Part shown: in pieces, positions 5,182 through 62,417 of the stretch
Layout of the letters: every line of letters starts with the position of its first letter
How positions within the stretch are numbered: the stretch's first letter is position 1
From: a bacterium
GTDB lineage: Bacteria > Hydrothermota > Tepidihabitantia > Tepidihabitantales > Tepidihabitantaceae
NCBI GenBank assembly: GCA_035505375.1
Contig: DATJQV010000075.1
Coordinates: 83,393 to 147,392, forward strand
DNA length: 64,000 bases
Reading direction: 5' to 3'
Translations under genes and position numbers: made by a program
Notes under the pieces: generated by a model
What the model was told of the DNA's origin: nothing
Databases searched by the model: none
The model's input: only the letters and a program-made list of their open reading frames with translations

Positions 5182-5706
5182 TTACTTGCCTCGCCTCTTC
5201 GTCTTTGGCTTCGCGGACGACGTGGACGCGGCAGGCTTCGTCGGTTGCTCGCACAGCCGTTCTGCCCAGAACCTCAGTGTTTCGTCATCCTGGTCTTCCC
5301 AAGGTTGCCATTGCGGCCAACAGAAGGCGATGAAGGCGTCGACAAACGCCTTCTCGGCGGCATCAGAGTCTGTCTCGATGGTGTAGTCGTCGGCCTCTGC
5401 CTTGTCGTAGTACGTGAAGTAGTATGCCTTTGTCTCGGGGCCGAGTCCCTTTGCCACAAATGCCTTGCGCAACTCGGGCTCGCAATCCTCGTCTATTTCG
5501 GAGAGCGACTTCGGTCCTACGACGCCACCGGTGCCAACGTCAGACTCGTTATCTGCAACGCCTTCCGCACTCGCGAATTGGAACGCTGCCCCGAACATGG
5601 AGACACCTCCACTCTCGTACCCGCTCTTCTCCGTGGACTTCAGGAGCTTGGTCAACTCCTCGCGCGGAATCGACTCGACCCAGCTCTTTTGATCGTTGTC
5701 TGCCAT
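5182..5706 (-). CDS. acidic hypothetical protein (Asp/Glu-rich) adjacent to hsdR
   Basis: Strong CAGGAGG RBS upstream of ATG 5706. 174 aa, highly acidic, no recognisable domain. Confidence 0.5.
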   Translation of the reverse strand: MADNDQKSWVESIPREELTKLLKSTEKSGYESGGVSMFGAAFQFASAEGVADNESDVGTGGVVGPKSLSEIDEDCEPELRKAFVAKGLGPETKAYYFTYYDKAEADDYTIETDSDAAEKAFVDAFIAFCWPQWQPWEDQDDETLRFWAERLCEQPTKPAASTSSAKPKTKRRGK

Positions 5707-5858
5707 CTAGGCCTCCTGTAGTGACCTCTCATCGATGCGGCCCTTCGGAAGAAACCGAGTCATGGGCGGATTCTAGAGAGGGCTGGCGGGCGAGTCAAAT
5801 TCGAGGCCGCGCGTCAGGAATCGCCGGTTGCGTCGCCGGGGACTTGTCCGATGCCCAG

Positions 5859-10819: not shown

Positions 10820-10915
10820 CTACTTCATCTCCGCATACAGCCGCCCGTTCGCAGTTCTCCGGATTCACCAACGTCTCCGCATCCTCGTGGAGGATGTCCC
10901 CGCTAGTGAACTCCA

Positions 10916-12367: not shown

Positions 12368-12373
12368 GCCTGT

Positions 12374-13312: not shown

Positions 13313-13429
13313 TGCGTTGCCTCCTTCGTCATCTCCGCAATCTCTTCCTCCGCTTTCGGGCTTCGTCTAGCTCATGGGGCGGCGGGCCAGCGTACATTGA
13401 GACCGTGCCTGCAAAGAACCGGCGCGGCG

Positions 13430-32684: not shown

Positions 32685-32689
32685 CTTGC

Positions 32690-32735
32690 ATTCGGCACTC
32701 TGGATTCTGGTCTCTGAATTCTGGATTATCCGGGC
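32690..32735. repeat. MITE-like repeat fragment in the 60-bp spacer between the two DUF3857 paralogs
   Basis: CTGGATTCTGGTCTCTGAATTCTGGATTATCC is the reverse complement of the CAGAATTCAGAGACCAGAATCCAG module. Confidence 0.5.
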
Positions 32736-32744
32736 TTGCATTGC

Positions 32745-38240: not shown

Positions 38241-41078
38241 ATGCGCAAGACTGTGATGGCTATCATGCTCTCAATGGCGATGCTGGCAACAGCAGGCCTC
38301 GCGAACACCGCGACCGGCACAGCCGGAATGCCCAATCGGAGCCCGGTCATTCGGCCGATCCCGAAGCCGATCCCGGTGGTGCAGGCGCACGCTCCGGCCC
38401 TTTCCATCGCCAACACCACACTCATCCACTGGGACAAGTTCTATGACCGGCACGGCAACCCACTGCCGGCGGGCGCGCCGGAGGACGTCAGCCCAGACTC
38501 GCTCTACTGGAAGGACCTTAACAGCTCCATCTATCTGAAGTCGTCGGCGAAGGTCGCTAGTCCTTCCCCGGCCAACCGTTCAGCCATGTCGTTCCCGGAC
38601 GGTCAGTCCACGGTGTGCATGGACCCGGTCGGCAACTATGTCTACGAGGCAGATGGGGACACACTGTATCGGTTCAGCACGGTTGACGGTTCGATGACGA
38701 CATACACCCTGGCAGATAGCGGTGGATCCGGATGCGCGACCGACGGCCAGTACATTTACTGTCCGAACGGCACGACCATGTACAAGTACACGATGAACGG
38801 GAACTACGTCAGCTCAACCACCACGGACTACACCTGCGATGCTTACTCGATATCCTGCTGCCGGGATACGGTCTGGTTCACCAACGACCGGTACAACGGA
38901 GTGACCCTCTACGGCTATGCCTGCTCGAAGTTCACCGGCGGCAGCATCACGCACGACGCCACCTGGAACGTCGGCACCGGCACCGACGGAGTGGGCAATG
39001 TCGCCTGGGACGGCGTCTACTACTACCTCCCCTGGATTGGCACGAGGCCCATCACGTTCAAGAGATTCTATGCGGACCGGACACTCTACTCGAGCGGCAC
39101 CGTGAGCATCGACTCGCGCGGGGTGATGTGCTCGGTGCAGGGAGCGCGGTCGACGGCGCAGGATTCGCTCTACTGGAAGCTGAATTCCAGCACGACTAAC
39201 CTCTACTCGTCGCCCAAGGCGCAGGAAGTAACCGCGGCCCAGGCCTCGCCGTTTGCCTGGCAGAACAGCCAGACGATATCCTGCATGACCCCGGACGGGC
39301 TGTACATGTTCGAGGTCTACGCCAACAACATGCGCCGGACCAATCTCGCTACCGGCGAGGTAATCAATTACGCCCTTGCCGACTCCAGCGGCGGCGCGTG
39401 CGGAACCGACGGCCAGTATGTCTACGTCCCGAAGGGCACGATGACACGCAAGTACAATTTGACCGGCTCGCTCATCAGCACGACCACTACTGATTACGCA
39501 CCGGTGTTACTTGCCAGCACCTTCGGCTTTGGCGTAGCCAACGACACGGTGTGGCTGACACCAGTGGATACGGGCAAGACCTGGTACGGCTATGCGTGCT
39601 CGAAGTTCACTGGCGGCAGCATTACCCACGATGCGATGTGGTCCACTGTTGGCGGCGCTGTGACTGCGATGACCGTGACTTGGGACGGACAATACTACTA
39701 CATGTGCTGGGGCGGCCACCCCGCTGATACGCTCCTGCGCTTCTACCGCGACCGCACGCTCTACTCGACCGGTACGGTAACCGGCGACGCTCGCAGCGTC
39801 ATGTGCAAGGCGGGGAGCTACCCAGTGATGCTCTGCGAGGCCACCTCCTATCCGGATCACGTCGCGAGTTTCAGCCTGATGCTCGTGGACTCCTCCGGTG
39901 GCAAGTTCGCGGCGGCTGACACGTACCACATCGGCACCAGCGGGCATGACGCGTTCCCGGCTACTGATTGGTACAACCACGGCTACCGCGCGATAATGAC
40001 TTTCACCGACCAGACCCCTACGGATCCGTCCGGTCTGGGCGACAGCATGGCACGGTTCATCCAACTGGGCGGTGGCGTTGTTGAGGCCACATTCTCGGAC
40101 TGCACGAACTGGCAGATAACCGGTAACTGGCGCTTGATGTACGCCCCATTCACAGTGCAGAGCGCGTCCTTCTCTTCGGGCACCATGGGAACGGTGCACC
40201 AGCCGCTCCATCCGGTCATGCTCGGCGTGTCCGCGCTCAGTGTAGGCGACTACCGCAGCGGCAACACCGACAGCACTCTGCGCGGCCAGCATTCAGTCTG
40301 TCTCTCCGAGTATACTGACGGCAACATATGCCTTGCCGCGTGCTTCGATAGCGCGGGTCAGCGTGCGCTCTCGATCGGCATGGACCCCATGGATTACTGG
40401 ATCACGCCCACCACCGGCCAGTGGTGCAGGCTGATGGTGAACGCACTTGACTGGGTTGCGGTCGGGCCCAGCGTGGGCGTGACCGCGCCGAATGGCGGCG
40501 AGACCTGGGATGTCGGCTCGGTCCACAATATCACCTGGACCCAGACCGCCAACGGCGTCAGTGATTCTATCTACTACTCGACCGACGGCGGTGCGAGCTG
40601 GACCGGCGTGACCTGGTTCGCCGCTCCGCCGAGTCCGCTCCAATACGCCTGGACCGTTCCCAACGATACCACCAAGCAGGCCCAGGTGAAGCTTGTGACC
40701 TGGAATTCGGACGGCGGCAGGGTCGAGGACGCAAGCGACGCCGACTTCACGATCGCGCCGCCGATGGCAGTCGAACAGCCTCGGAACAGCGCCTTGCCGC
40801 TGGTGTTCGCGCTGCATCAGCCCCAGCCGAACCCGGCAACGTCAGGCGCAACAGTCCGCTACGACCTGCCGCGACCGGCGCAGGTCGAGCTGAGCATCTA
40901 CGATGTGTCCGGCGCGCTGGTGCGGCGGCTCGTGCGCGGAGCGCAGACCGCCGGTTACCGGAGCGCGTACTGGAACGGGACCGACAGTCGCGGCCGTGCC
41001 ATCGCGCCCGGCGTGTACTACTGCCGGTTCACGGCCGGCGACTCTCATGCGACACAGAAGCTGGTCGTGCGGAGATAG
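38241..41078 (+). CDS. large secreted T9SS-sorted surface protein, paralog A (internally duplicated N-module)
   Basis: Signal peptide. Two copies of the WDKFYDRHGNPLP...CSKFTGGSITHDA module. A GPI-anchor-like/Ig module (TAPNGGETWD...SIYYSTDGGASWTG). C-terminal sorting domain (RYDLPRPAQVELSIYDVSGALVRRL...GVYYCRF). Confidence 0.7.
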   Translation: MRKTVMAIMLSMAMLATAGLANTATGTAGMPNRSPVIRPIPKPIPVVQAHAPALSIANTTLIHWDKFYDRHGNPLPAGAPEDVSPDSLYWKDLNSSIYLKSSAKVASPSPANRSAMSFPDGQSTVCMDPVGNYVYEADGDTLYRFSTVDGSMTTYTLADSGGSGCATDGQYIYCPNGTTMYKYTMNGNYVSSTTTDYTCDAYSISCCRDTVWFTNDRYNGVTLYGYACSKFTGGSITHDATWNVGTGTDGVGNVAWDGVYYYLPWIGTRPITFKRFYADRTLYSSGTVSIDSRGVMCSVQGARSTAQDSLYWKLNSSTTNLYSSPKAQEVTAAQASPFAWQNSQTISCMTPDGLYMFEVYANNMRRTNLATGEVINYALADSSGGACGTDGQYVYVPKGTMTRKYNLTGSLISTTTTDYAPVLLASTFGFGVANDTVWLTPVDTGKTWYGYACSKFTGGSITHDAMWSTVGGAVTAMTVTWDGQYYYMCWGGHPADTLLRFYRDRTLYSTGTVTGDARSVMCKAGSYPVMLCEATSYPDHVASFSLMLVDSSGGKFAAADTYHIGTSGHDAFPATDWYNHGYRAIMTFTDQTPTDPSGLGDSMARFIQLGGGVVEATFSDCTNWQITGNWRLMYAPFTVQSASFSSGTMGTVHQPLHPVMLGVSALSVGDYRSGNTDSTLRGQHSVCLSEYTDGNICLAACFDSAGQRALSIGMDPMDYWITPTTGQWCRLMVNALDWVAVGPSVGVTAPNGGETWDVGSVHNITWTQTANGVSDSIYYSTDGGASWTGVTWFAAPPSPLQYAWTVPNDTTKQAQVKLVTWNSDGGRVEDASDADFTIAPPMAVEQPRNSALPLVFALHQPQPNPATSGATVRYDLPRPAQVELSIYDVSGALVRRLVRGAQTAGYRSAYWNGTDSRGRAIAPGVYYCRFTAGDSHATQKLVVRR

Positions 41079-41124
41079 CGGGCGTGTAGACAGCAGACAG
41101 TAGACAGGATACAGCACAACGGTC

Positions 41125-41153
41125 GGGGCGAGCTTCGGCTCGCCCCTTGGTTT
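41125..41153 (+). terminator. GC hairpin + T-tract terminator after paralog A
   Basis: GGGGCGAGC-TTCG-GCTCGCCCC followed by TTGGTTT. Confidence 0.55.
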
Positions 41154-41203
41154 GACACCGGCCGCGCGAGGCGTGCAGAGCCCGAATCACCGACTGGTCT
41201 GGC

Positions 41204-41366
41204 TTGACAGCATAGGGACGCGAGTGTTTAATGAGACACGCTCGCACGAGCTCGGTGGTCGAGATTGGCCACCGCTGGTCTGCAGCCGGCGTCCGGCTGC
41301 AAGAGGAGGCCGACCGGACGTCGCACAGGCGTTGTCGCCTCCAGTTCGGTTCGCCAAGGAGGAAGA
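41204..41366 (+). promoter_or_regulatory. promoter (TTGACA-17/18-TTTAAT) plus conserved leader of paralog B
   Basis: Near-identical to the other four leaders. Confidence 0.55.
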
Positions 41367-43517
41367 ATGCCCAAGACGGTGATAGCTCTGATGCTACTAG
41401 TCGTGACGCTCGCCCCGACCGGGTTGGCGGCTACGACCGGACTGACCGCGAACCCGGTTTCGGAAGCTTCAGTTCAGTCTACCACTGGCCCGACCTGCCA
41501 GGCCGCAAGGCAGGCATTGGCCTCAGCACCCGCGCGCGCAGTTGTTCACTGGGAAAGGTCCTACGACCGACACGGCAACCCGCTGCCGGGTGGGCCGCAG
41601 GAGAACGTCGGCACCGACTCGCTCTACTTCAAGAACTACTACTCGCTGACGGCCCTGTTGGGTAGCCCTAAGTCGGAGGTCCCGAATCCAACCCCGGAGA
41701 GCTGCGGGCCGGCGTTCGCATGGCAGCTCAACCAGACCTCGGTCGGGATGGACCCGTTCGGCAACTACTGCTACGAGGTGTACAGCACCACGCTGCGCCG
41801 GACCAGCACGGCTGACGGCAGCCACACGGACTATACTATCGGACACGGTTACTGGGCGTGCGGCACTGATGGCAGCTACGTCTATGCACCGGTCGGCGAT
41901 ACAGTCTTCAAGTACACGCTGACCGGCACGTTGGTGAGCTCGACACTGCTCGACGTTACTCCGACATGGTACGAGTTCTCGGTGGCGAACGACACCGTCT
42001 GGTGCGCCCCCGGAGACAGCATACTGCATGGCTACGCCTGCTCGAAGTTCAGCGGCGGTTCGATAACGACCGACGCGACCTGGAACGTCGGTGCCGGCAC
42101 CAATACTCCGGCGCTGGTGGGGTGGGATGGCCGCTACTACTACGTATCCTGGGACGGGCAGACGTCAAATACCTTCAAGCGGTTCAACGCCGACCGGACC
42201 CTCTCGGCCAGCGGGATGATCAGCATCGACACGCGGGGCGTGATGTGCAAGCGGGGTAGCTACGGGGTGAAGGTCTGCCATGGCTCGTGGCATCCTTCCT
42301 ATCTGGCGAGTCTGCGTCAGATGCTCCTCGACTCCTGCGGCGGGAAGTTCGCAGCGGTCGACACGTACGACATTAGCTTAGGAGCCCACGCCACGTTCCC
42401 GGCGACCGAGTGGTATGACGGTGGCTATCGGGCGATACTGGTGTTCACCGACGACAATCCCCAGGATTCCATCGCGCTGGGCGATTCCCTCGCGCGGTTC
42501 ATACAGCTCGGCGGCGGCGTGGTTGAGGCCGTATTTGCGGACCAGCCCAAAAACGACGTCCGGGGTGAGTGGCGTTCCGTGTATGCTCCATTCAGCATCG
42601 AGAGCACGTCCTACTCTGCCGGGTCCATGGGCACGGTACATCAACCGCTACACCCGATAATGACGGGAGTCTCCGCACTGACGGTCGGCAGCTTCCGCAC
42701 TGGCAACAAGCCCGGCACGCTGCGTAGCGCCAACTGCGTGAGCCTGGCGGAGTACACGGACAACAACTGTGTCGCCACCTGCTTTGACAGCGCGGGCCAG
42801 CGGGCCGTCTCCCTTGGCACAAACCCGGAGGTGTACTGGCTCTCGTCGGCTTCCGGCCAGTGGTGTCGGCTGATGGTGAACGCGCTCAACTGGACTGCGG
42901 TCGGGCCCAGCGTGGGCGTGACGGCGCCGAACGGCGGCGAGACCTGGGATGCCGGCACGGTCCACAACATCACCTGGACCCAGACCGCCAACGGCGTCAG
43001 CGACTCGATTTACTACTCGACCGATGGCGGTTCATCCTGGATTGGTGTGACTTGGTTCGCCGCACCGCCGAGCCCGCTCCAGTATGCCTGGACAGTCCCG
43101 AATACACCGAGCACACAGGCTCGGGTCAAGGTTGTGACTCGGGACGCGGACGGCGGCAGGGTCGAGGACGCAAGCGACGCCGACTTCACGATCGCGCCGC
43201 CGATGGCACTCGAACAGCCTCGGAACAGCGCCTTGCCGCTGGTGTTCGCGCTGCATCAGCCGCACCCCAACCCGCTGGCGTCGGGTGCACAAATCCGTTA
43301 TGACCTGCCGCGCCCAACGCAGGTCGAGCTGAGGATCTACGACGTGTCGGGTACGCTCGTGCGGCGGCTGGCGGGCGGAGCGCAGACCGCCGGTTACCGG
43401 AGCGCGTACTGGAACGGGACCGACAGCCGCGGCCGGACGGTCGCGCCTGGTGTGTACTACTGCCGGTTCACGGCCGGCGACTTCCGCGCGACACAGAAGC
43501 TGGCCGTGCGGCGGTAA
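41367..43517 (+). CDS. large secreted T9SS-sorted surface protein, paralog B
   Basis: Start at ATG 41367 after an AAGGAGG RBS, where the signal peptide MPKTVIALMLLVVTLAP begins. Same domain order as A, D and E. Confidence 0.7.
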   Translation: MPKTVIALMLLVVTLAPTGLAATTGLTANPVSEASVQSTTGPTCQAARQALASAPARAVVHWERSYDRHGNPLPGGPQENVGTDSLYFKNYYSLTALLGSPKSEVPNPTPESCGPAFAWQLNQTSVGMDPFGNYCYEVYSTTLRRTSTADGSHTDYTIGHGYWACGTDGSYVYAPVGDTVFKYTLTGTLVSSTLLDVTPTWYEFSVANDTVWCAPGDSILHGYACSKFSGGSITTDATWNVGAGTNTPALVGWDGRYYYVSWDGQTSNTFKRFNADRTLSASGMISIDTRGVMCKRGSYGVKVCHGSWHPSYLASLRQMLLDSCGGKFAAVDTYDISLGAHATFPATEWYDGGYRAILVFTDDNPQDSIALGDSLARFIQLGGGVVEAVFADQPKNDVRGEWRSVYAPFSIESTSYSAGSMGTVHQPLHPIMTGVSALTVGSFRTGNKPGTLRSANCVSLAEYTDNNCVATCFDSAGQRAVSLGTNPEVYWLSSASGQWCRLMVNALNWTAVGPSVGVTAPNGGETWDAGTVHNITWTQTANGVSDSIYYSTDGGSSWIGVTWFAAPPSPLQYAWTVPNTPSTQARVKVVTRDADGGRVEDASDADFTIAPPMALEQPRNSALPLVFALHQPHPNPLASGAQIRYDLPRPTQVELRIYDVSGTLVRRLAGGAQTAGYRSAYWNGTDSRGRTVAPGVYYCRFTAGDFRATQKLAVRR

Positions 43518-43556
43518 GCAGACAGCATTCAGTAGGCAGTAGACAGGATACAGGTC

Positions 43557-43579
43557 GGGGCGGCCTGCGGGCCGCCCCT
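43557..43579 (+). terminator. GC hairpin terminator after paralog B
   Basis: GGGGCGGCC-TGCG-GGCCGCCCC, preceded by a TAGACAG repeat array. Confidence 0.5.
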
Positions 43580-43707
43580 GACCGTCATGGCGGCGTTGAT
43601 AAGAAGGGAGCGGTGCACGGTCCACGGTGTACGGTTCACGGATAGCGGCCTGAGGCTTGAGCTTGTGCTTGAGCTGCGACGCAGTCGCCATGGCGGGGCT
43701 GGCTTTG

Positions 43708-43865
43708 CTTGACAGCTTGTCGTGCTGGGTGTTTAATGAGGCGGCTTTGCACGAGCGCAGCGGTAGGAATCGTCTGCTACCGGCTCGCAGCCGACATCCG
43801 GCCGCAACAGGAGGCCGGCCGGACGCCGCAAGAGGAGTTCCGCCTCCGGTCATCGGGGAGGATAT
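43708..43865 (+). promoter_or_regulatory. promoter (TTGACAGC...TGTTTAATGAG) plus conserved leader of paralog C
   Basis: Shares the SD-like GGAGGC, the anti-SD-like GCCTCC and the true SD GGGGAGG triad. Confidence 0.55.
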
Positions 43866-46322
43866 ATGCTCAGAGTGAGGATGTTCCTTGTGGCAGTGCT
43901 CGCTGCCGTCGGGTTCGCGGCAACGACCGGGTTGACCGCAAGGCCGGTTTCAAGCACGGCCATTCAGCCTAATCCGACGTCCGTGATGCACGGCGTGGTC
44001 GCGGGAGGTGAGCGTCCGGTTGTTCACTGGGACAGGTTCTACGACCGGCCCGGCGGCCCGCTGCCCGCCGGCCTGCCGAGGAACGTCAGCACGGACTCGC
44101 TCTACTGGAAGCTGTACAGCAGCACCACATACCTCTATTCATCACCCAAGGCGGATAGCGTGACCCCGGGCGACTCAACGGCGTTAGCCTGGCAGAACGA
44201 GCAGACCATACCGTGCATGACCCCGGACGGCCACTACGTCTTTGAGGTGTACGCCTTGACCATGCTGCGCACCAATCTGACTACCGGCGCGGTGGATACC
44301 TTTGCCCTCGCCGATGCAAGCGGCGGCGCGTGCGGCACCGACGGTCACTACGTTTACGTCCCGAAGGGTACCACGACGCGCAAGTACACACTTGACGGAG
44401 CCCTGGTGAGCGCTACCACGACCGACGACTCGTGCTGGGTCGCCGCCAGCACCTTCGGCTTTGGTGTGGCCAACGACACGGTGTGGCTTACCCCGTCCAG
44501 CGCGGGCACGACCTGGTACGGCTATGCCTGCGCCAAGTTCGTCGGCGGCAGTATCACCCACGACGCGACGTGGCCCACGATTGGCGGCTCGGGTGATGCG
44601 ATGTCCTTGACCTTCGACGGCCAGTATTACTTCATGACCTGGGGCGGCTACGCCAAGGATACGCTCCTGTGCTTCTACAAAGACCGTACACTCCACTCGA
44701 CCGGCACGGTGCACGCCGACGCCCGGAGTGTGATGTGCAAGACGGTTGGCTACGGAGTCATGATCTGCCACGGCTCGGGAAACCCCTCATACGTCGGCGG
44801 ACTGGGTCAGATGCTTGAGGATTCATCCGGCGGGAGGTTCGCGGCGGTCGACACCTACTTCATCGGCACCGGTGGACACGCCACGTTTCCGGCCACGGAC
44901 TGGTATGACCTCGGCTATCGGGCGATACTGACGTTCACAGACTACTCTCCCGAAGATGCGGCCACGCTGGGCGACAGCCTCGCCCGATTCATTCAACTGG
45001 GCGGCGGCGTTGTGGAGGCCACATTCGCGGATGCCTCCGGCTATCAAATCGCCGGGAATTGGCGCTCCACGTATGCGCCTTTCACCGTCCAGAGCGCCTC
45101 CCTCACTCCCGGCACGATGGGCACGATCCACCAACCGCTCCACCCGGTGATATCGGGTGTGTCGGCAATCACCATGGACAACTTCCGCACCGGCAATACA
45201 CCCGGCACCCTGCGCAGCACCAGCTGCGTCGGCCTGGCTGAGTACACGGATAGCCACTGCCTCGTGGCATATTTCGACAGCGCCGGCCAGCGTGCCGCCT
45301 CCCTGGGCATGTTCCCGCTGACGTACTGGCAGGATACGGCCGCCGGTCAGTGGTGCCGGCTGATGGTGAACGCGCTCAACTGGGCTGCAGTCGGGCCCAG
45401 CGTGGGCGTAACCGCGCCGAACGGCGGCGAGAGCCTGTATGCCGGCACGGTCCACAACATTACCTGGACCCAGACCGCCAACGGAGCCAGTGATTCAATC
45501 TACTACTCGACCGATGGCGGTGCGAGCTGGACCGGCGTAGCCTGGTGCGCCACTCCGCCGACGCCGCTCCAGTACGCCTGGACCGTTCCGTTCGCGCCGA
45601 CCACGCAGGCCCGGGTCAAGGTTGTGACCTGGGATGGCGACGGCGGCAGAGTCGAGGACAAGAGCGACGCCGACTTCACCATCGTGGTGCCGTCCCACGA
45701 CGTCGGCGTGACCCAGATAATCCAGCCGGTAGACACGGTTGACTCGGGCATGGTCGTCGTGCCGACTGCGGTGGTGAAGAACTTCGGCGGCGTACAAGAG
45801 ACTTTCCCGGTGCGATTCAGCATCGGTGGCAGCTACACGCACGACACGACGGTGACAGTCGGCTCGGGCGTGACCGACACCGTCGCCTTCCCCCAGTGGG
45901 TGGCCGGTCCGGTCGGCACGTTCGAGGTCCGCTGTTCGACCCGGCTGGGGTCGGACGTAAACAATGCCAACGACCGGGCCACGGACACGGTTGTGGTGAA
46001 GCCGTCAGGCGGCATTGAGCAGTCGAAGAACAACGCTTTGCCTCGGGCGTTCGCCCTGCACCAGCCGTACCCTAACCCGCTGGCGTCGAGTGCGCTAATT
46101 CGATACGACCTGCCGTGCCCAACGCAGGTCGAGCTCAGGATCTACGACGTGTCGGGTACGCTCGTGCGGCGGCTGGTCGGCGGAGCGCAGACGGCCGGTT
46201 ACCGGAGCACGTACTGGAACGGGTGCGATGACCGTGGCCGGATGGTCGCGCCCGGCGTTTACTACTGCCGGTTTGCAGTAAGCGACTTCCGCGCGACACA
46301 GAAGCTCGTCGTGCGGAGATAG
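43866..46322 (+). CDS. large secreted T9SS-sorted surface protein, paralog C (with CARDB-like domain)
   Basis: Signal peptide. Conserved family modules. A CARDB-like domain (HDVGVTQIIQPVDTVDSG...NNANDRATDTVVV). C-terminal sorting domain. Confidence 0.7.
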   Translation: MLRVRMFLVAVLAAVGFAATTGLTARPVSSTAIQPNPTSVMHGVVAGGERPVVHWDRFYDRPGGPLPAGLPRNVSTDSLYWKLYSSTTYLYSSPKADSVTPGDSTALAWQNEQTIPCMTPDGHYVFEVYALTMLRTNLTTGAVDTFALADASGGACGTDGHYVYVPKGTTTRKYTLDGALVSATTTDDSCWVAASTFGFGVANDTVWLTPSSAGTTWYGYACAKFVGGSITHDATWPTIGGSGDAMSLTFDGQYYFMTWGGYAKDTLLCFYKDRTLHSTGTVHADARSVMCKTVGYGVMICHGSGNPSYVGGLGQMLEDSSGGRFAAVDTYFIGTGGHATFPATDWYDLGYRAILTFTDYSPEDAATLGDSLARFIQLGGGVVEATFADASGYQIAGNWRSTYAPFTVQSASLTPGTMGTIHQPLHPVISGVSAITMDNFRTGNTPGTLRSTSCVGLAEYTDSHCLVAYFDSAGQRAASLGMFPLTYWQDTAAGQWCRLMVNALNWAAVGPSVGVTAPNGGESLYAGTVHNITWTQTANGASDSIYYSTDGGASWTGVAWCATPPTPLQYAWTVPFAPTTQARVKVVTWDGDGGRVEDKSDADFTIVVPSHDVGVTQIIQPVDTVDSGMVVVPTAVVKNFGGVQETFPVRFSIGGSYTHDTTVTVGSGVTDTVAFPQWVAGPVGTFEVRCSTRLGSDVNNANDRATDTVVVKPSGGIEQSKNNALPRAFALHQPYPNPLASSALIRYDLPCPTQVELRIYDVSGTLVRRLVGGAQTAGYRSTYWNGCDDRGRMVAPGVYYCRFAVSDFRATQKLVVRR

Positions 46323-46366
46323 TAGGGAGTAGACAGCAGACCGTAGACAGTAGACAGGATACAGGT

Positions 46367-46389
46367 CGGGGCGGGCTTCGGGCCGCCCC
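46367..46389 (+). terminator. GC hairpin terminator after paralog C
   Basis: GGGGCGGGC-TTCG-GGCCGCCCC. Confidence 0.5.
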
Positions 46390-46505
46390 TGACCGTCATG
46401 GCGGCGTTGATAAGAAGGGAGCGGTGTACGGTTCACGGATGAAGGCCTGAGGCTTGAGCTTGTGCTTGAGATGCGACGCGGTCGCTATGGCGGGGCTGGC
46501 TTTGC

Positions 46506-46663
46506 TTGACAGCGTATGGACGCGGGTGTTTAATGAGGCGGCCTTGGACGAACGCGGTGATCGGAATTGTCTGCCACCGGTTCGCAGCCGACATCCGGCC
46601 GCAACAGGAGGCCGACCGGGCGTCGCGCAAAGAATCCCGCCTCCGGCTAATCAGAGAGGGAAG
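46506..46663 (+). promoter_or_regulatory. promoter plus conserved leader of paralog D
   Basis: TTGACAGCGTATGGACGCGGGTGTTTAATGAG, then the same leader core. Confidence 0.55.
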
Positions 46664-49162
46664 ATGCCCAGAGTTGTGATAGTTCTGGTATTCAGTGCCG
46701 CGATGTTGGCCACGGCCGGATTCGCCAGCAACAATAGTCTCACCGCGGCGGGCGCCAGCCCGCTTGCTCGGTCGACCCCCGCGCCAAACCCGGCGTCTGC
46801 GGCGTGGGCCGCGCTTCCCGGGAACGCGGGTCCGACGACCATTCACTGGGACAAGTTCTACGACCGGTCCGGGAAAATGCTGTCCGGCGGCCGGGGAGAG
46901 GCGGTTGGCGCCGAATCGCTCTACTGGAAAGACTACAACGACTCTGCCCACCTGAAGTCGTCGCCGAAGGTCCAGAATCCGTCTCCGACCAATCGGACGG
47001 CGATGGCGTTCCACGACCAGCAGTCCACCACGTGCATGGACCCGACCGGCGACTATGTCTATGAGGTAGGCGGCACCAGCCTGTACCGGTACAGCACGGT
47101 TGACGGTTCAATGATGACCTACACCCTTGCATACACGGGCGGGATTGGCTGCGCGACCGACGGCCAGTACATTTACCGGCCGCGCGGCGCCAGCAGCAAG
47201 ACCATCGACAAGTACACGATGACCGGGACCTTCGTCGACTCGACCACAACTGACGTGAGCTGTGACGCATACTCGATATCCTGCTGCCGGGACACGGTCT
47301 GGTTCACCAACAATCGGTCCAGTCCCGTGACTCTTTACGGCTACGCCTGCTCCCGGTTTGCCGGCGACAGCATCAACTACGATGCCACGTGGGACGTCGG
47401 CTCCGGTAACTCCAGCGTCGGCCCGGTTACGTGGGACGGTTACTACTTCTATCTGACCTGGATCGGCACGACCAACGCTACGTTGAAGCGGTTCTACGCC
47501 GACCGGACGCTCTATTCGACCGGCACGGTAAGCATCGACCCGCGCGCCGTGATGTGCAGGAAGAGCGCGTCGTTCAAGGTGCTGTTCGCCGGGACCGAGG
47601 GCGACAATCCTACCCTTCAGGCCCAAATCGTGAGCGCTTCGGGCGGCCAGATAACCTCGGTCGACTACTTCGCCGCGCGCAACGGGCCCCTGCCGGCGTA
47701 TGCTCTCTACCAGCAGGGCTACCGGGTGATAATAACCTTTGGCGGCAACTACCTCTGGGGCAGCGGCGACATATTCGGCGACAGCCTGGCGGCGTTCGTT
47801 GACCTGGGTGGTGGGGCGCTGAATATGACCTATACGACATGCGCCGGTGGCGACTGGTGTATCGGCGGCCGGTACAAGGACCAGTACATGCCGGTGCCGA
47901 CCGTGACCTATGACAACGTCCACTGTCCTTCAATTACCATCCTTGATTCGCTACACCCGATAATGAACGGGGTCACGGCAATCGGCAACTTCACGTGCGA
48001 GCCCTACACGATGGACGTTCGCTCTCCGACATACTCCGTGCGGCTTGCGAACTGGGACGTCACCAATTCCTACATCGAGTGTGCTGCGTTCGATTCCGGC
48101 GGCAGGCGCACCGTGTTCCTCGGCTACCACCCGAACTACAACCCGGGCGGGACCGGCCAGTGGCTCACCCAGCTCGTCAACGCCCTGATTTGGATGGGCA
48201 ATCCGGTTCTCGACGCGAATGTGACCGTGCCGAATGGCGGCGAGAACTGGGTGACCGGTTCGGTCCACAACATCGCGTGGAGCCAGACCAGCAATGGCAT
48301 CAAGGACTCGATCTACTACTCGACCGACGCCGGCGCGAGCTGGACCGGCGTGGCCTACTATGACCCGCCGCCGGCACCACTCCAGCATGTCTGGACCGTT
48401 CCGTCCACGCTGACCTCGCAGGCGCGGGTGAAGGTAGTGACCTGGGACACCGCCGGCGTCAGAGTCGAGGACGCGAGCGACTCCGACTTCACTATCGCGG
48501 CGCTGGTCCACGATGTCAGTGTCCTGCAGGTTATCCAGCCGGTGGACACGGTGGACTCCGGTACGACCGTGGTGCCGACTGCGGCGGTGAAGAACTTCGG
48601 CCAAGTGCAGGAGACCTTCCCGCTCCGGTTCAGCATCGGCGGTTTCTACACAGCCGACACATCGGTTACAATCGACCCCGGCATGACCGACACCGTCGCC
48701 TTCCTCCAGTGGGTGGCCGGTCCGGTCGGCGCGCACGCGGTCCGTTGCTCAACACGCCTGGATTCAGACCAGAACAGTGACAACGACTATACAGCGGGCA
48801 TGGTCGTTGTCGTGCCGCCGCCGCCCGGCATCGAGCAGTCCAAGAGCAGTGCATTGCCGCGAGTGTTCGCGCTGCATCAGCCCCGGCCGAACCCGTCAAC
48901 GTCGGGGGCGCAAATCCGCTACGACCTGCCGCGGTCGGCGCACGTCGAGCTGAACATCTACGGCGTGTCGGGTACGCTCGTGCGGCGGCTGGTCGGCGGA
49001 GCGCAGACGGCCGGTTACCGGAGCGCCAACTGGAACGGGTGCGATGACCGTGGCCGGATGGTCGCGCCCGGCGTGTACTACTGCCGGTTCACGACCGGCG
49101 ACTTCCGGGCCGGGCAGAAACTGGTCGTGGGAGATAGTAGGGAAGTAGACAGCAGACGGTAG
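46664..49162 (+). CDS. large secreted T9SS-sorted surface protein, paralog D (with CARDB-like domain)
   Basis: Start at ATG 46664, where the signal peptide MPRVVIVLVFSAAMLATAG begins. The N-module is closest to paralog A. Confidence 0.7.
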   Translation: MPRVVIVLVFSAAMLATAGFASNNSLTAAGASPLARSTPAPNPASAAWAALPGNAGPTTIHWDKFYDRSGKMLSGGRGEAVGAESLYWKDYNDSAHLKSSPKVQNPSPTNRTAMAFHDQQSTTCMDPTGDYVYEVGGTSLYRYSTVDGSMMTYTLAYTGGIGCATDGQYIYRPRGASSKTIDKYTMTGTFVDSTTTDVSCDAYSISCCRDTVWFTNNRSSPVTLYGYACSRFAGDSINYDATWDVGSGNSSVGPVTWDGYYFYLTWIGTTNATLKRFYADRTLYSTGTVSIDPRAVMCRKSASFKVLFAGTEGDNPTLQAQIVSASGGQITSVDYFAARNGPLPAYALYQQGYRVIITFGGNYLWGSGDIFGDSLAAFVDLGGGALNMTYTTCAGGDWCIGGRYKDQYMPVPTVTYDNVHCPSITILDSLHPIMNGVTAIGNFTCEPYTMDVRSPTYSVRLANWDVTNSYIECAAFDSGGRRTVFLGYHPNYNPGGTGQWLTQLVNALIWMGNPVLDANVTVPNGGENWVTGSVHNIAWSQTSNGIKDSIYYSTDAGASWTGVAYYDPPPAPLQHVWTVPSTLTSQARVKVVTWDTAGVRVEDASDSDFTIAALVHDVSVLQVIQPVDTVDSGTTVVPTAAVKNFGQVQETFPLRFSIGGFYTADTSVTIDPGMTDTVAFLQWVAGPVGAHAVRCSTRLDSDQNSDNDYTAGMVVVVPPPPGIEQSKSSALPRVFALHQPRPNPSTSGAQIRYDLPRSAHVELNIYGVSGTLVRRLVGGAQTAGYRSANWNGCDDRGRMVAPGVYYCRFTTGDFRAGQKLVVGDSREVDSRR

Positions 49163-49183
49163 ACAGTAGACAGGATACAGGTC

Positions 49184-49205
49184 GGGGCGGCCTCCGGGCC
49201 GCCCC
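49184..49205 (+). terminator. GC hairpin terminator after paralog D
   Basis: GGGGCGGCC-TCCG-GGCCGCCCC. Confidence 0.5.
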
Positions 49206-49327
49206 TGACCGTCATGGCGGCGTTGATAAGAAGGGAGCGGTACTCGGTCCACGGTGTACGGTTCACGGACAGCGGCTTGAGCTTGTGCTTGAGCTGCGAC
49301 GCAGTCGCTATGGCGGGGCTGGCTTTG

Positions 49328-49486
49328 CTTGACAGCGTATGGAGGCGCGTGTTTAATGAGGCGGTCTCGCGCGAGCGCGGTGGTCGGAATTGTCTGTCAC
49401 CGGCCCGCAGCCGACATCCGGCCGCAACGGGAGGCCGACCGGACGCCGCGAGATGAGTTCCGCCCCCAGTCCAGCAGGGAGGATGT
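49328..49486 (+). promoter_or_regulatory. promoter plus conserved leader of paralog E
   Basis: TTGACAGCGTATGGAGGCGCGTGTTTAATGAG, then the same leader core. Confidence 0.55.
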
Positions 49487-51922
49487 ATGCGCAGAATGCC
49501 CGTGTTTCTTGTCTCGGTGCTCGCCTTGACTCCGCTCGCGACCGGCCTGATCGCAAAGCCGGTTTTAAGCACAGCCATTCAGTCTGCTCCGAGGCCCGCA
49601 GGGCAGGCGGTGGTCGTAGAACCAGCGCGTACTGTTGTTCAATGGGACAGGTTCTACGACCGACATGGGAACCCGCTGCCGGAAGGGTCACAGGAAGACG
49701 TCGGCACCGACTCGCTCTACTTCAAGCAGTACAACGTGACCGATATCCTCTACGGGTGCCCCAAGTCACAGGCCCCGAATCCGACTCCGGCCGACTGCCG
49801 GCCGGCGTTTGCGTGGCAGAATAGCCAAACGGTGGCCTGTATGGACACGGCGGGCGTCTATGCCTACGAGGTCTACAACACCAACCTGCGGCGGACCAAA
49901 ACGGATGACGGGACGTACACCGATTACACAATCGCCAACGGATACTGGAACTGCGCGACCGACGGTGACAACCTTTACGTCCCGGTCAGCAACGTCGTGT
50001 ATAAGTACACGTTCACCGGGACCCTGGTTGATTCCACGGCCCTCGACATTACTCCGGCGTACTACGAATTCTCGGTAGCAAACGACACTGTCTGGTGCGG
50101 GACCGGTTCCGACACGATCCTCAAAGGTTACGCCTGCTCGAAGTTCACCGGCGGTTCGCTAACGCCGGACGCCACGTGGGACGTGGGCGCCGGCACCGCA
50201 TCCCCGGCCCAAGTCGCCTGGGACGGCCAGTACTACTACGTTTCCTGGGCGGGGTACGCCTCCAACACCTTCAAGCGGTTCAACCCTGACCGAACCCTCT
50301 CGGCCAGCGGGACGATAAGCATCGACACGCGCGGCGTGATGTGCAGGAAGAGCGGTTACACGGTCATGATTTGCTTCGCCGACCCGTACTTCTACGATGT
50401 TGACAGTCTGGGGCAGATGCTGGCGGACTCATCCGGCGGGAAGTTCACAGCGGTTGACACATACAACATCGCCACGCATGCCACTTTCCCGGCCACGGAC
50501 TGGTACAACAGCGGCTGTCGGGCGATACTGGCGTTCACAAACTACTCTCCCGCGGATTCGGCCGCGTTCGGCGACAGCCTCGCCCGGTTCATTCAACTGG
50601 GCGGCGGCGTTGTGGAAGCACCGTTCGCATCCGACCATGGATCTGAGATCACGGGAGCATGGCGCTCGACGTATGCGCCCTTCACTCTTCAGAACGACGT
50701 CCTGGCTCCCGGCACGATGGGCACCATCCACCAGCCGCTCCACCCGATAATGTCGGACGTGACGGCCCTCTATTTGAGCGACTGGCGCGCGGGCAACACT
50801 CCCGGTACGCTGCGCAGCGCTAACTGCGTGAGCCTGGCCGAATACACCGATAGTTTCTGCGTCGCCGCTTGCTTCGACAGCGCGGGCCAGCGTGCCGCCT
50901 CCCTGGGTTTCTATCCACTGGACTACTGGCGTTCAACTGCCACCGGGCAGTGGTGCCGGCTATTGGTGAACGCGCTCAACTGGACCGCGGTCGGGCCCAG
51001 CGTGGGTGTGACCGCACCGAATGGCGGCGAGAGTTGGGATGCCGGCACGATCCACAACATCACCTGGACCCAGACGGCCAATGGGGTCAGCGATTCAATC
51101 TACTACTCGACCGACGGCGGTGCGAGCTGGACCGGCGTGACCTGGTTCGCCACTCCTCCGGCCCCGCTCCAATACGCCTGGACCGTTCCGTTCACGCCGA
51201 CCACGCAGGCCCGGGTCAAGGTCGTTACCTGGGATGGCGACGGCGGCAGAGTCGAGGACAAGAGCGACGCCAACTTCACCATCGTGGCGCAGGCCCACGA
51301 CGTCGGACTACTGAGTATTATCCAGCCGGTAGACACGGTCGACTCGGGCACGGCCGTCGTGCCGACCGCGGTGGTGAAGAACTTCGGCGGTGTCCAGGAG
51401 ACCTTCCCGGTGCGGTTCAGCATCGGCATGCTCTACACGCATGACACCACGGTGACAATCGCTTCGGGCGTGACCGACACCGTCGCCTTCACGCAGTGGA
51501 TAGCCGGTCCGGTCGGAGTGTTCGTTGTTCGGTGCTCGACCCGGCTGGACGCCGACACCAGCCATGCCAACGACCGCGCCATGGACACGGTCGTGGTGAA
51601 ATCGTCCTCCGGCATTGCTCAGGCCGGGAACGGTGCCCTGCCGCTCGTGTTCGCTCTGCACCAGCCGCACCCGAACCCGCTGGCCACGGGCGCTCATATC
51701 CGCTACGACTTACCGCGGCCGACACAGGTTGAGCTGCGAATCTACGGCGTGTCGGGTACGCTCGTGCGGCGGCTGGTCGGCGGAGCGCAGACGGCCGGTT
51801 ACCGGAGCGCGTACTGGAATGGGTGCGATGACCGTGGCCGGATGGTCGCGCCCGGTGTGTACTACTGCCGGTTTGCAGCTAGCGACTTCCGCGCGACACA
51901 GAAGCTCGTCGTGCGGAGATAA
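49487..51922 (+). CDS. large secreted T9SS-sorted surface protein, paralog E (with CARDB-like domain)
   Basis: AGGGAGG RBS. Signal peptide. The N-module is closest to paralog B. Confidence 0.7.
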   Translation: MRRMPVFLVSVLALTPLATGLIAKPVLSTAIQSAPRPAGQAVVVEPARTVVQWDRFYDRHGNPLPEGSQEDVGTDSLYFKQYNVTDILYGCPKSQAPNPTPADCRPAFAWQNSQTVACMDTAGVYAYEVYNTNLRRTKTDDGTYTDYTIANGYWNCATDGDNLYVPVSNVVYKYTFTGTLVDSTALDITPAYYEFSVANDTVWCGTGSDTILKGYACSKFTGGSLTPDATWDVGAGTASPAQVAWDGQYYYVSWAGYASNTFKRFNPDRTLSASGTISIDTRGVMCRKSGYTVMICFADPYFYDVDSLGQMLADSSGGKFTAVDTYNIATHATFPATDWYNSGCRAILAFTNYSPADSAAFGDSLARFIQLGGGVVEAPFASDHGSEITGAWRSTYAPFTLQNDVLAPGTMGTIHQPLHPIMSDVTALYLSDWRAGNTPGTLRSANCVSLAEYTDSFCVAACFDSAGQRAASLGFYPLDYWRSTATGQWCRLLVNALNWTAVGPSVGVTAPNGGESWDAGTIHNITWTQTANGVSDSIYYSTDGGASWTGVTWFATPPAPLQYAWTVPFTPTTQARVKVVTWDGDGGRVEDKSDANFTIVAQAHDVGLLSIIQPVDTVDSGTAVVPTAVVKNFGGVQETFPVRFSIGMLYTHDTTVTIASGVTDTVAFTQWIAGPVGVFVVRCSTRLDADTSHANDRAMDTVVVKSSSGIAQAGNGALPLVFALHQPHPNPLATGAHIRYDLPRPTQVELRIYGVSGTLVRRLVGGAQTAGYRSAYWNGCDDRGRMVAPGVYYCRFAASDFRATQKLVVRR

Positions 51923-59620: not shown

Positions 59621-60391
59621 TTGACGCAGAGCGGAGAAATCTCTAGTCTTAGCGCCATGAATCGCCGCCAGCGGGTCCGCAGCGGGCTCTTAATCGTCTC
59701 TTTCTTTCTGTTCCCGGTGACGTTCTATTATCTGTCGCCGGCTATCTCGACTTTCGGGGCGTTTCAGGGCGTCGTTACGGGCGCGCTCTTGCTCTTCGGC
59801 CTGCAGTTCGTCTCCGCGTTCGTGCTGGGCCGGGCGTGGTGCGGCTGGGCATGCCCGAGCGGCGGCATGCAGGAGGCTTGTTTCCGCGCACGCGACCGGC
59901 GTGTTGCCGGTGGGCGCTGGAACTGGATGAAGTTCTTCATCTGGGTGCCCTGGCTCGGCAACCTCGTCTTCACCTTTGCCCGCTTCGGCTTGAAGCGCGT
60001 GGACCCGTTCTTCATGACCACGCACGGGTTCTCGCTGGGCAGCCTGCCGGGGATTGTCACTTATGTTCCCACCCTGGGCTTTCTGGTCCTGCTGCCTGCA
60101 CTGGTCATCGGCCGGCGCGCGTTCTGCCACTACGAATGCTGGATGGCGCCGTTCATGATCATCGGTCGCAGTCTCGGTCGTGTCCTTCGCATTCCGACGC
60201 TGCACATGAAGGCCGACTCCGCGAAGTGCGCCGGTTGCGGGACGTGCACGCGCGTATGCCCGATGAGCCTCGAAGTCCAGCCGATGGTGGCGCGCGGCAA
60301 GATTATCTCGAGCGAGTGCATCAATTGCGGCGTTTGCGCGGACAACTGTCCGAACAAGGCAATCGCCTTCACGTTCGGGCGAGAGAAGTAA
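59621..60391 (+). CDS. NapH/MauN-family membrane-bound 4Fe-4S ferredoxin (polyferredoxin)
   Basis: Four TM helices. Conserved CGWACP motif. Two C-terminal CxxCxxCxxxCP clusters (CAGCGTCTRVCP, CINCGVCADNCP). Confidence 0.8.
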   Translation: MTQSGEISSLSAMNRRQRVRSGLLIVSFFLFPVTFYYLSPAISTFGAFQGVVTGALLLFGLQFVSAFVLGRAWCGWACPSGGMQEACFRARDRRVAGGRWNWMKFFIWVPWLGNLVFTFARFGLKRVDPFFMTTHGFSLGSLPGIVTYVPTLGFLVLLPALVIGRRAFCHYECWMAPFMIIGRSLGRVLRIPTLHMKADSAKCAGCGTCTRVCPMSLEVQPMVARGKIISSECINCGVCADNCPNKAIAFTFGREK

Positions 60392-60500: not shown

Positions 60501-60635
60501 TGGTTGTGCTGCCTCGGGTTGACGACCGGAAACGGCCATCTACAATTATCCATGGCTGAGGCGCCGACGCCGAATTCTCCGGCGCAGCCGGCGCGCCATC
60601 AGCGACGTTGGTCTTACCGAAACAGAGGAGGCAGA

Positions 60636-62417
60636 GTGAAGAGTCTGTGTTTGCTTGCGCTGCTGGTCCCGGCGATGGTGCTCGGCACCCAGCGCGTGAT
60701 GGTGGTCGAGGAGCTGACCCGGGCCGGGGGCTGACCGTACTGTCCAGGCGCGGCCCGTGGGGTCTGCGAACTCGCGTCAGCGGCGTTCGATTCGGTAGTG
60801 TGCATCGCCTATCACTCCGGTGATGCGTATGCGAATACGGCGGCGGCGGCCCGGTACTCCTACTATGGCGAAAGCGGCACGCCGTACGTTCACCTGGACG
60901 GCGACTCCGAGGTCGTCGGCGGCATTACCAACGGCACGATGTACCCGGTGTACCGGGCGTACTTCGATACGCGCAAGAGCGTACCCAGTCCGCTCGAAAT
61001 CGACCTGACCTGCACTTACGATTCTGCTTCGCGGCAGGGGAACCTCGGGATAAAGCTGAAGAACACGACCGGCACAGCGGTGACCGGGCAGTTGCAGGTC
61101 GCGCTCTGCGAGAGCCACATCCACTACGTCTGGTACGGGCTCGACAGCCTGTACCACGTAGAGCGCAACATGCTTCCCGATGCCAACGGCGAGGCGGTGA
61201 CAATCCCGGCCAACGACTCGATAACGAAGGCCAGGAATTTCACCATCGACGCGGCGTGGGTGGCGCGGAACTGCAACCTCGTCGTCTTCGTGCAGGACAA
61301 TTCGACCAAGGCGATGTACCAGGGCGCGAGCATCGGCGTCTACCAGGTGCCGGCGCTGGACTATCGCGGGTATCAGGCCGCGTACGCCGAGCCGGGAGCG
61401 AACGTCAACCTCACGGTCGGGCTCGTGAACCGTGGCACGGGACTGGCGGACTCGGTGAGCGCGGTGCTCTCGACAACCGACCCGGATATCAACGTGACCG
61501 CGCCGAACGCGCTGTTCGGCTCGATTACGCTCGGAAAGGACGGCTATTCGCTGACGCCGTTCATCATCCATGTCGACAGCTCGCATGCGGACAACAGCCT
61601 GGTGACGATGAATCTCGCGGTCTCCGGTGCGAACGGCTACGCGGGCAGCGTGAGTTTCCCGCTGCTGGTCACGACCAACCGCGGGTTCTCGGACGACATG
61701 GAGCGTGGAACGAACGGCTGGACCCACTCGGGAACAAGTGACAACTGGCATCAAACCACACATCGGAGCCAGTCGCCGTCGTCGAGCTGGTACTGCGGTG
61801 CGGAGGGTTCGTGGCAGTACACCATCGAGAACGACGCGCGGCTGGTGACTCCGTACTTCGTGTCGGGCGATTCGGCCCGGCTTTCGTTCGACCACTGGTA
61901 TGACGTCGAGCAGGACTACGATTTCTGCATGCCGGAAATCAACAACGGCTCGCAGTTCTGGGTCCCGCTGGCGAGCTACACCGGAACGAGTACGAACTGG
62001 CAACACGTGCAGATCCCGCTCGCTGCCTGGTCGGGCCAGACCGTCAGGGTCGGGTTCAGATTCCTGTCCGACGGCGGCGTGAACGGAGAGGGTTGGTACC
62101 TCGACAACCTGCTGTTCGAGCCCTACCACGCGGGCGTGACCGAACCGGCACCGGGCGAGCCGGTCCGTAGCGCGAAGCTCGAAGTCCGAAGCCCGGCCCA
62201 ACGAACGGCGACGGTCAGCTATGCGATTCCGCCCGGAGCTTACGCGCGGCTTGCCGTCTACGACGTGAACGGCAGGCTGCTGTCGGTGATAGCCAACCGG
62301 CTCACCGGCTCGGGACGGGCGAATTGGAGTCTGGCCGGAGTTGAAGCCGGTGCGTACTTCATCCGTCTGACAGATGGCAAGTCGAGCAAGGTCGCCAAGG
62401 TCGTAGTGGCGAGATAG
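60636..62417 (+). CDS. candidate selenoprotein: signal peptide - thioredoxin-fold-like U-P-Y-C motif (in-frame UGA at 60732-60734) - CARDB/MAM-like domains - C-terminal T9SS sorting domain
   Basis: GAGGAG RBS, 5-nt spacer, then GTG 60636. The N-terminus MKSLCLLALLVPAMVLG is a signal peptide. The in-frame TGA is followed by P-Y-C, giving a CPYC-type redox motif with Sec in place of the first Cys. The reading frame then continues unbroken into the 539-aa ORF 60798-62417. That ORF lacks any signal peptide of its own but ends in a Sec-dependent T9SS sorting domain. A hairpin at 60749-60768 lies 15 nt downstream of the UGA. Confidence 0.45.

Follow-up and report, generated by a model that had tools for sequence, protein, structure and literature searches.

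We analyzed a stretch of 64,000 nucleotides (hereafter the 64-kb window; positions 83,393 to 147,392 of contig DATJQV010000075.1, assembly GCA_035505375.1) from a bacterium of candidate division WOR-3. Sequence comparisons indicate that an in-frame TGA at positions 60732–60734 of the window is very probably a selenocysteine (Sec) codon, forming part of the redox motif in a thioredoxin-like protein that is secreted to the cell surface. We consider it highly likely that positions 60636–62417 form one gene for an exported selenoprotein, which by analogy would be a cell-surface thiol-disulfide oxidoreductase. The reading frame, the conserved TGA, the pairing of Sec with cysteine in homologs, the domain content, and a hairpin just downstream of the UGA were all observed directly. 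The original prediction, made from the letters of the window, had proposed that a signal peptide is linked to a protein sorted by the type IX secretion system (T9SS) via a Sec-UGA, which sits in the UxxC motif of a thioredoxin fold. Our analysis supports this core of the prediction and revises some of its details.

Results

Reading frame and in-frame TGA

The full coding sequence of the selenoprotein (60636–62417, + strand) comprises 593 codons, including one Sec-UGA, and ends with the stop codon TAG at 62415–62417. The start codon is GTG (60636–60638), and the sole interruption of the frame is the TGA (60732–60734, + strand; residue U33), which is in frame with a 539-residue open reading frame (ORF; 60798–62417), for which ORF lists give GTG 60798 as the start. 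When the TGA is read through, the frame beginning at GTG 60636 yields 593 residues and joins the signal peptide to the T9SS-sorted protein, as had been proposed. The encoded order is MKSLCLLALLVPAMVLG-TQRVMVVEELTRAGG, the TGA, and then P-Y-C-P-G-A-A-R-G..., leading into the 539-residue ORF; the signal peptide MKSLCLLALLVPAMVLG is followed by RVMVVEEL and then by TRAGG-[TGA]-P-Y-C-P. A well-formed ribosome-binding site, GAGGAGG (60625–60631, + strand), was read from the sequence before the GTG, although its spacer to the start codon is 4 nt and not 5 nt, as first stated. The start position matches in the relatives, and it is occupied by ATG in L007, L009, and L018. Inspection of the sequence confirmed that there is no in-frame ATG, GTG, or TTG in 60735–60797.

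TGA ends 18 of the 45 confidently chosen ORFs of the window; it is a normal stop there, and therefore the genome is not recoded. A read-through scan of the window for coding-like candidates gave only repeated non-coding leaders and no other selenoprotein gene in the 64 kb. The stop usage of the window can also be taken as support for the TGA being a real stop, generated by an inactivating mutation or an assembly error, with the locus being a pseudogene or fragment. Among the stop codons of the window, TGA ranks first or second in frequency, and in the database entries examined, automatic gene callers had cut all the Sec-form homologs at this site, leaving an ORF of 33 residues and a protein truncated at its N-terminus. 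The comparison with homologs described below bears on this alternative.

Conservation of the TGA and Sec/Cys pairing

A TGA was present at the matching alignment column in 27 distinct homologous nucleotide sequences belonging to at least four diverged clades, with the motifs G-U-P-Y-C-P-G, TGTW-U-P-[YF]-C-P-G, G-U-[PA]-Y-C-Y-G, and G-U-P-T-C-P. The carriers include the WOR-3 metagenome-assembled genomes (MAGs) L005, L007, and L011, five sequences with TGTW-U-P-[YF]-C, and a clade of ~52% GC. In a scan of species-representative genomes, the closest relatives were candidate division WOR-3 MAGs with 83%, 78%, and 74% identity, all of which carry the TGA, and a 28%-identical homolog with the TGA was found on a complete WOR-3 chromosome. 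A metagenome scan gave 20 further loci.

The database homologs fell into two classes: full-length proteins with a CxxC motif (P0002, P0005, P0006, P0008, P0010, and P0018; the locus L030 also has the Cys form), and N-terminally truncated proteins that begin just past that site. In the DNA of the truncated homologs, every one has an in-frame signal peptide upstream and a TGA at the matching column. The TGA column corresponds to the invariant first Cys of CxxC in 9/9 and 55/55 aligned Cys-type sequences, and approximately 50 Bacteroidota-type proteins are among the Cys homologs with the invariant CxxC. The Sec/Cys pairing expected of a Sec codon is thus present at the U position.

In the TGA-containing orthologs, synonymous variation was observed both upstream and downstream of the TGA. 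Codons 5′ of the TGA differ by synonymous changes, but the peptide they encode is conserved; therefore, the leader is translated in this frame. These data leave little room for a real stop, since the TGA has been kept in sequences from separate samples and clades with the protein conserved on both sides, and since the remaining 560 codons of the window gene, 3′ of the TGA, are intact and carry all the domains. A pseudogene or assembly error is extremely improbable, and the conservation of the sequences brings this explanation close to refutation.

In addition, some Sec forms (L022, L023, L024, L026, and L036) share the flank of the Cys form exactly (EEFTGTW-U-PYCPG vs EEFTGTW-C-HYCPG) and do not have the one-residue insertion of the window protein (…TRAGG-U). 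The exact flank, without the insertion, suggests a repeated or recent exchange of Sec and Cys within the clade.

Domain content and predicted fold

The window protein begins with a 17-residue signal peptide of the Sec-translocon type (MKSLCLLALLVPAMVLG; 60636–60686, + strand), which is kept in the relatives. It was judged by inspection and by the corresponding helix in the model described below, and it is present only when the TGA is read through. An Omp28/thioredoxin-like domain with a beta-sandwich follows (60687–61355, + strand; residues ~18–240), and matched PF11551 Omp28 at residues 74–235 with 66.2 bits against a gathering threshold of 34.9; matches to NF045500 and NF033782 were sub-threshold. 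The redox motif U-P-Y-C (60732–60743, + strand) is located in this domain, where helix 1 of the thioredoxin-like fold begins. The domain also includes Pro83, whose column is invariant in the alignments and which we read as the thioredoxin cis-Pro. A choice-of-anchor J/InhA-like MAM domain is located at 61680–62111 (+ strand; residues ~349–492; NF038128, 39.8 bits vs a cut-off of 30; PF20773, 46 bits vs 26.9). The original prediction of CARDB/MAM-like domains was therefore correct for the MAM-like part, while CARDB was not detected in the window protein with Pfam or NCBIfam. The C-terminus is a T9SS type A sorting domain (62193–62414, + strand; residues ~520–593), as had been stated for the 539-residue ORF; it scored 30.1 bits with TIGR04183 (cut-off, 23) and was slightly sub-threshold with PF18962 (25.0 bits vs 27).

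The fold was modeled with AlphaFold2 on the Cys homolog P0005, which is 54% identical to the window protein. The model (pLDDT, 88.4) consists of a signal helix, strand 1, the CxxC motif, a thioredoxin-like core, a beta-sandwich, and a C-terminal sorting domain, in this order. Residues 2–16 form a helix, residues 24–29 a strand, and C34/C37 precede the helix at 37–50, in agreement with the strand-CxxC-helix layout proposed from the sequence: the motif is located after strand 1, at the N-terminus of helix 1. The best match of the model in the PDB was HBP35 of Porphyromonas gingivalis (5y1a; E = 2e-13, TM 0.54–0.58), followed by Atu2684 (2axo), and a PDB search with the family profile likewise gave thioredoxins and HBP35 as sequence matches. 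The prediction had likened the motif to the CPYC of glutaredoxin. This likeness was not borne out, since no glutaredoxin model in Pfam or NCBIfam matched at E <= 1, the sole weak match was an MJ0307-type thioredoxin (E = 0.065), and most Cys homologs have C-[TQHS]-[YF]-C, with CPYC in one, L030. Judging from both profiles and model, the domain is of the Omp28/HBP35 thioredoxin-like type and not glutaredoxin-like.

The domain content bears on the possibility that the locus gives two products, namely a 32-residue peptide ending at the TGA and a cytoplasmic protein starting at GTG 60798 without a signal peptide. GTG 60798 is the first start 3′ of the TGA, termination at UGA is expected when selenium is limiting, and HBP35 is likewise reported to yield N-terminally truncated cytoplasmic forms (PMC2907840). 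However, a T9SS tail would serve no purpose in a protein that is not exported through the Sec translocon; the stretch of 21 codons from the TGA to 60798, coding for the second Cys and helix 1, shows conservation at the protein level; and the Cys homologs are continuous across the TGA region. We therefore regard two separate products as highly improbable and favor one continuous selenoprotein.

SECIS-like hairpin

A hairpin resembling a selenocysteine insertion sequence (SECIS) was found at 60749–60768 (+ strand), at the position and with the bulged U and GUG loop that had been described. It has 8 bp, the bulged U at 60765, and the GUG loop at 60757–60759, which begins 22 nt past the UGA. Its sequence is CGCGGCCC-GUG-GGGU(C)UGCG, and its energy was −11.4 kcal/mol in a 26-nt fold and −9.6 kcal/mol in an isolated evaluation. 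Constraints on bacterial SECIS (bSECIS) elements have been published (PMC13188914), and the window hairpin satisfies them in our own implementation, as do 27/27 Sec forms, 2/5 Cys forms, and 16% of the background codon positions in window genes. Because 16% of the background positions pass, the bSECIS fit alone is weak. No Rfam family matched within the window at the gathering thresholds, and the only match near the site was a chance match (E = 9.7).

The hairpin was further characterized by comparison of the Sec and Cys forms. A homologous hairpin was found in all relatives. When the homologous 26 nt were folded, nine Sec forms gave z = −1.2 to −5.7; in contrast, four Cys forms gave z = +0.1 to +1.5 and had no hairpin. 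Within the first ~600 nt, synonymous variation was at its minimum in codons +1 to +15 past the UGA in two independent clades, one high-GC and one low-GC, and this synonymous constraint is located on the hairpin. Among 16 high-GC sequences, GCC-CGT-GGG-CTG, which lies over the loop, was the only run of at least three invariant codons in ~600 nt, and the CGT supplying the GU of the loop was invariant in 16/16, though CGT represents ~7% of the Arg codons in the window. The ~52% GC clade (10 sequences) has another hairpin, AAAGGUC-UGNNN-GACCUUU, at nucleotides +25 to +43, both arms of which are located at the minimum of synonymous variation, whereas the loop between the arms is variable. For the explicit stem 17–24/29–36, 83% of the cells pair, compared with 30–48% when the partners are slid, and one stem pair is compensatory (C:G to A:U).

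Sec machinery and selD neighborhoods

Neither a tRNA-Sec gene nor selA, selB, or selD was found within the 64-kb window, which contains no tRNA gene of any kind, and tRNA scans of 26 related loci likewise gave no tRNA-Sec. In the relatives, a selD gene with its own in-frame TGA adjoins the homologs in L001, L002, L004, L032, L037, and L012/L013. L012 carries the closest Cys form (58% identity), with a Sec-containing selD and a TusA-DsrE fusion 3.5 kb downstream. All the top matches of the L012 SelD that have a named organism are from candidate division WOR-3, in which SelD is common.

Several observations were made on these neighborhoods. In the ~52% GC lineage (L001, 841–5081; L037, 691–7089; L032, L002, and L004), two to three tandem Sec-form Omp28/T9SS paralogs are immediately followed by selD, and this adjacency recurs across contigs; the selD of this lineage contains an in-frame TGA in MRKGILSFTKCPG-U-ASK (…TKCPG-U-ASK…). 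The row at 3456–9604 of L012 consists of AhpC/redoxin, two Omp28-type genes, a 233-residue T9SS-tailed protein, the TusA-DsrE fusion, and selD (AAG-U-ASK). The first Omp28 gene of this row (P0002) looks frameshifted from a MAM-like continuation at 5165–6124. Many SelD entries of the WOR-3 type are ~321 residues long and cover 93% of the L012 SelD query; these entries, like the L012 product P0099, are probably Sec-containing SelDs shortened by gene callers. The full-length WOR-3 SelD entries at NCBI have Cys (AAG-C-A[AG]K).

Discussion

Probable Sec decoding of the UGA

The results that weigh against a surface selenoprotein decoded with the help of this hairpin are as follows. The window hairpin has z = −1.16, and 27 of 200 shuffles were equally good. 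Segments of 48–69 nt were no stabler than dinucleotide shuffles or synonymous recodings, against a background of 62% GC. Two stem registers occur within the clade, and the compensatory change is in one pair only. The RNAalifold consensus was a different, weak structure in which the hairpin was not recovered. Of the tests on the hairpin, those on the short 26-nt segment and the comparisons between sequences were informative, and the comparative evidence outweighs the thermodynamics, which is weak by itself at this GC content. The Sec machinery listed above is absent from the window, and the function is assigned by analogy with HBP35, which is ~17% identical to the modeled homolog. Considering both sides, the SECIS assignment appears well supported by position and constraint, while the covariation support is modest, because of the two stem registers and because RNAalifold does not give the hairpin unaided.

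The absence of Sec machinery from the window would also be consistent with the UGA being read through as something other than Sec, either by a near-cognate tRNA as Cys or Trp, or as Cys via the Sec machinery. However, SelB-dependent decoding is marked by a position-specific GU-loop hairpin at SECIS distance under synonymous constraint, as found here, and a Sec-containing selD adjoins these genes in the relatives. Furthermore, the residue aligned with U33 is the nucleophilic Cys in the CxxC motif, and GOS_C, to which the protein is homologous, is an accepted selenoprotein family. Read-through with another amino acid is thus very unlikely, and we favor the decoding of U33 as Sec.

From established pathway knowledge, we infer the steps of selenium insertion, export, and surface anchoring as follows. 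Translation would start at GTG 60636, and the UGA at codon 33 would be decoded as Sec by SelB and Sec-tRNA(Sec), with SelB recruited by the hairpin at 60749–60768. The 17-residue signal peptide would direct the protein through the Sec translocon, and the C-terminal T9SS domain would mediate outer-membrane crossing and then surface anchoring. In type A T9SS cargo, the tail is normally removed by cleavage and the protein becomes attached to the cell surface. By analogy with HBP35, the U33-P-Y-C36 motif would then most likely cycle between the selenol/thiol and selenenylsulfide states, acting on extracellular disulfides or ligands.

Comparison with known families

The original prediction regarded such a protein as not previously described. 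This is only partly the case, since exported selenoproteins with U-P-Y-C-P have been known since 2008 as the GOS_C family, while the T9SS-tailed subfamily of WOR-3 is uncatalogued in the literature and databases that we searched. GOS_C was identified in Global Ocean Sampling data as a family with a thioredoxin-like fold, comprising 74 Sec sequences and 312 Cys homologs (Zhang and Gladyshev 2008; PMC2398784), and a 2026 inventory of prokaryotic selenoproteins equates it with NCBIfam NF045500, “Omp28-related selenoprotein,” with the motif UxxC (PMC13188914). GOS_C and the window protein share an N-terminal signal peptide, an Omp28-related thioredoxin-like domain, Sec as the first residue of UxxC within an identical U-P-Y-C-P, the strand ...V-E-[DE]-[FL]-T... 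before the motif, many Cys homologs, and a SECIS-like hairpin just downstream. Deposited GOS_C sequences have a signal peptide followed by …VEDFTGLN-U-PYCPSASFA…, and BLASTP of a GOS_C read against the window domain gave a full-length alignment with 20% identity (E = 4e-10) in which the Sec columns coincide.

The two nevertheless differ. Against the NF045500 cut-off of 200 bits, the window protein scored 56.3 and its relatives 51–83, while the GOS_C read scored 336.7; therefore, the window protein represents a distinct WOR-3 subfamily. GOS_C originates from marine surface waters, in contrast to the WOR-3 origin of the window protein, and the C-termini of the GOS_C reads inspected carry Asp-rich repeats, which resemble thrombospondin type 3 and dockerin motifs, and not a choice-of-anchor J domain with a T9SS tail. 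On these comparisons, the gene is of a known kind, the exported Omp28-related UxxC selenoproteins, with an architecture and lineage that differ from those of the curated equivalog.

Cys-type Omp28 T9SS proteins (PF11551 + PKD + Por_Secre_tail) occur in Bacteroidota, Cloacimonadota, and others, and are abundant in Bacteroidota and related phyla. They share with the window protein the Omp28 domain, CxxC at the matching column, the invariant Pro, and the T9SS tail, with 27–35% identity, but they have Cys, no SECIS hairpin at the homologous site, and a PKD middle domain instead of a MAM-like one. The UxxC selenoproteins of the DsbA-like, thiol-disulfide isomerase-like, and redoxin families (PMC9312934, PMC13188914) likewise have Sec in place of the N-terminal Cys, a thioredoxin fold, and a Sec/Cys pair; however, they belong to other domain families, and none is catalogued with a T9SS sorting domain. 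In full-text literature searches, no paper connected selenoproteins with Omp28 or WOR-3, and nothing relevant was returned on selenoproteins and type IX secretion.

Predicted function

The closest studied relative is HBP35, which shares a two-Cys thioredoxin-like domain, a beta-sandwich, a T9SS C-terminal domain, and surface display (5y1a; PMC2907840, PMC3120885). It differs from the window protein in having Cys and not Sec, in lacking the MAM/choice-of-anchor J domain, and in its Bacteroidota origin, in addition to the low identity noted above. HBP35 is reported to be a surface T9SS cargo whose recombinant form has in vitro thioredoxin activity that needs its two Cys residues; it also binds hemin and is required under hemin limitation (PMC2907840). 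By this analogy, the mature N-terminal domain of the window protein is most likely a cell-surface thiol-disulfide oxidoreductase.

The hemin binding of HBP35 leaves some room for a selenoprotein that acts mainly in surface ligand binding or detoxification, such as heme, metal, or metalloid capture or peroxide removal, and not in disulfide exchange. The two lineages with tandem genes adjoining selD and the location of L012 near a TusA-DsrE fusion are consistent with such a role, and a surface reductase would have no evident electron donor. However, the conserved features are those of a thioredoxin-fold redox site, namely UxxC/CxxC at helix 1 and Pro83, and clustering of selenoprotein genes with sel genes is frequent even when they have no function in common. 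We consider a primarily ligand-binding or detoxifying role possible but doubtful, and favor the oxidoreductase function.

A more specific proposal is that these surface selenoenzymes, displayed by the T9SS, take part in the acquisition of selenium, or of sulfur or heme. Selenium species outside the cell would be captured or reduced at the UxxC motif and so supply SelD, and the NapH-like ferredoxin encoded upstream would be the electron source in the lineage of the window. This route would account for the two to three tandem Sec paralogs that immediately precede a Sec-containing selD in two lineages, and for the location of the cluster beside a TusA-DsrE fusion and selD in a third. We offer it as a speculative and rather unlikely scenario.

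If the assignment is correct, recognition of the Sec codon would restore the export signal and the active site to mis-split database entries, in which the truncated Sec-form proteins seem to lack a signal peptide. It would add a selenoprotein to the cargo of type IX secretion, and candidate division WOR-3 would be counted among the lineages that have an extracytoplasmic selenoproteome. It would also imply that an uncultured anaerobe displays a selenol-based redox site on its surface. Furthermore, the long-unexplained GOS_C family would be tied to a studied relative, HBP35, making its function testable.

Genomic context and other features of the window

The upstream neighbor (59621–60391, + strand) encodes a NapH-like membrane 4Fe-4S protein with Pfam Fer4_5 and dicluster domains. 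A NapH-type protein had been predicted here, and it is present; however, its adjacency to the selenoprotein gene is kept in L003, L020, L021, and L036 and absent in L007, L009, and L025. We ruled out this ferredoxin as a conserved partner, since the adjacency is confined to close relatives. Two downstream genes are syntenic across the clade, and other T9SS-tailed proteins are encoded in the window.

A 505-residue protein (21671–23188, + strand) has a nitroreductase-family domain and a C-terminal FlgD_ig-type domain. In related loci, the FlgD_ig-type domain is listed on the same proteins as Por_Secre_tail. By its domains, this protein looks like another redox enzyme that is seemingly exported.

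A repeat of ~150 nt is common to two intergenic regions, at ~46450–46650 and ~49280–49450, which precede two of five large tandem genes on the + strand (38241–51922). In one frame, the repeat reads GLSLCLSCDAVAMAGLALLDSVW.RVFNEA...RSRHPAATGGRP; most probably, a leader or promoter has been duplicated along with these paralogous genes for secreted proteins.

On the − strand, a defense/restriction island (9629–15556) encodes a Schlafen AlbA_2/HATPase_c_4 protein, an unassigned 483-residue ORF, an Mrr-type endonuclease with a HARE-HTH domain, and an HsdM N6-methylase, and a Fic protein is encoded nearby (19702–20709). Two tandem paralogs with DUF3857 and a transglutaminase-like core are located at 30684–34685, also on the − strand.

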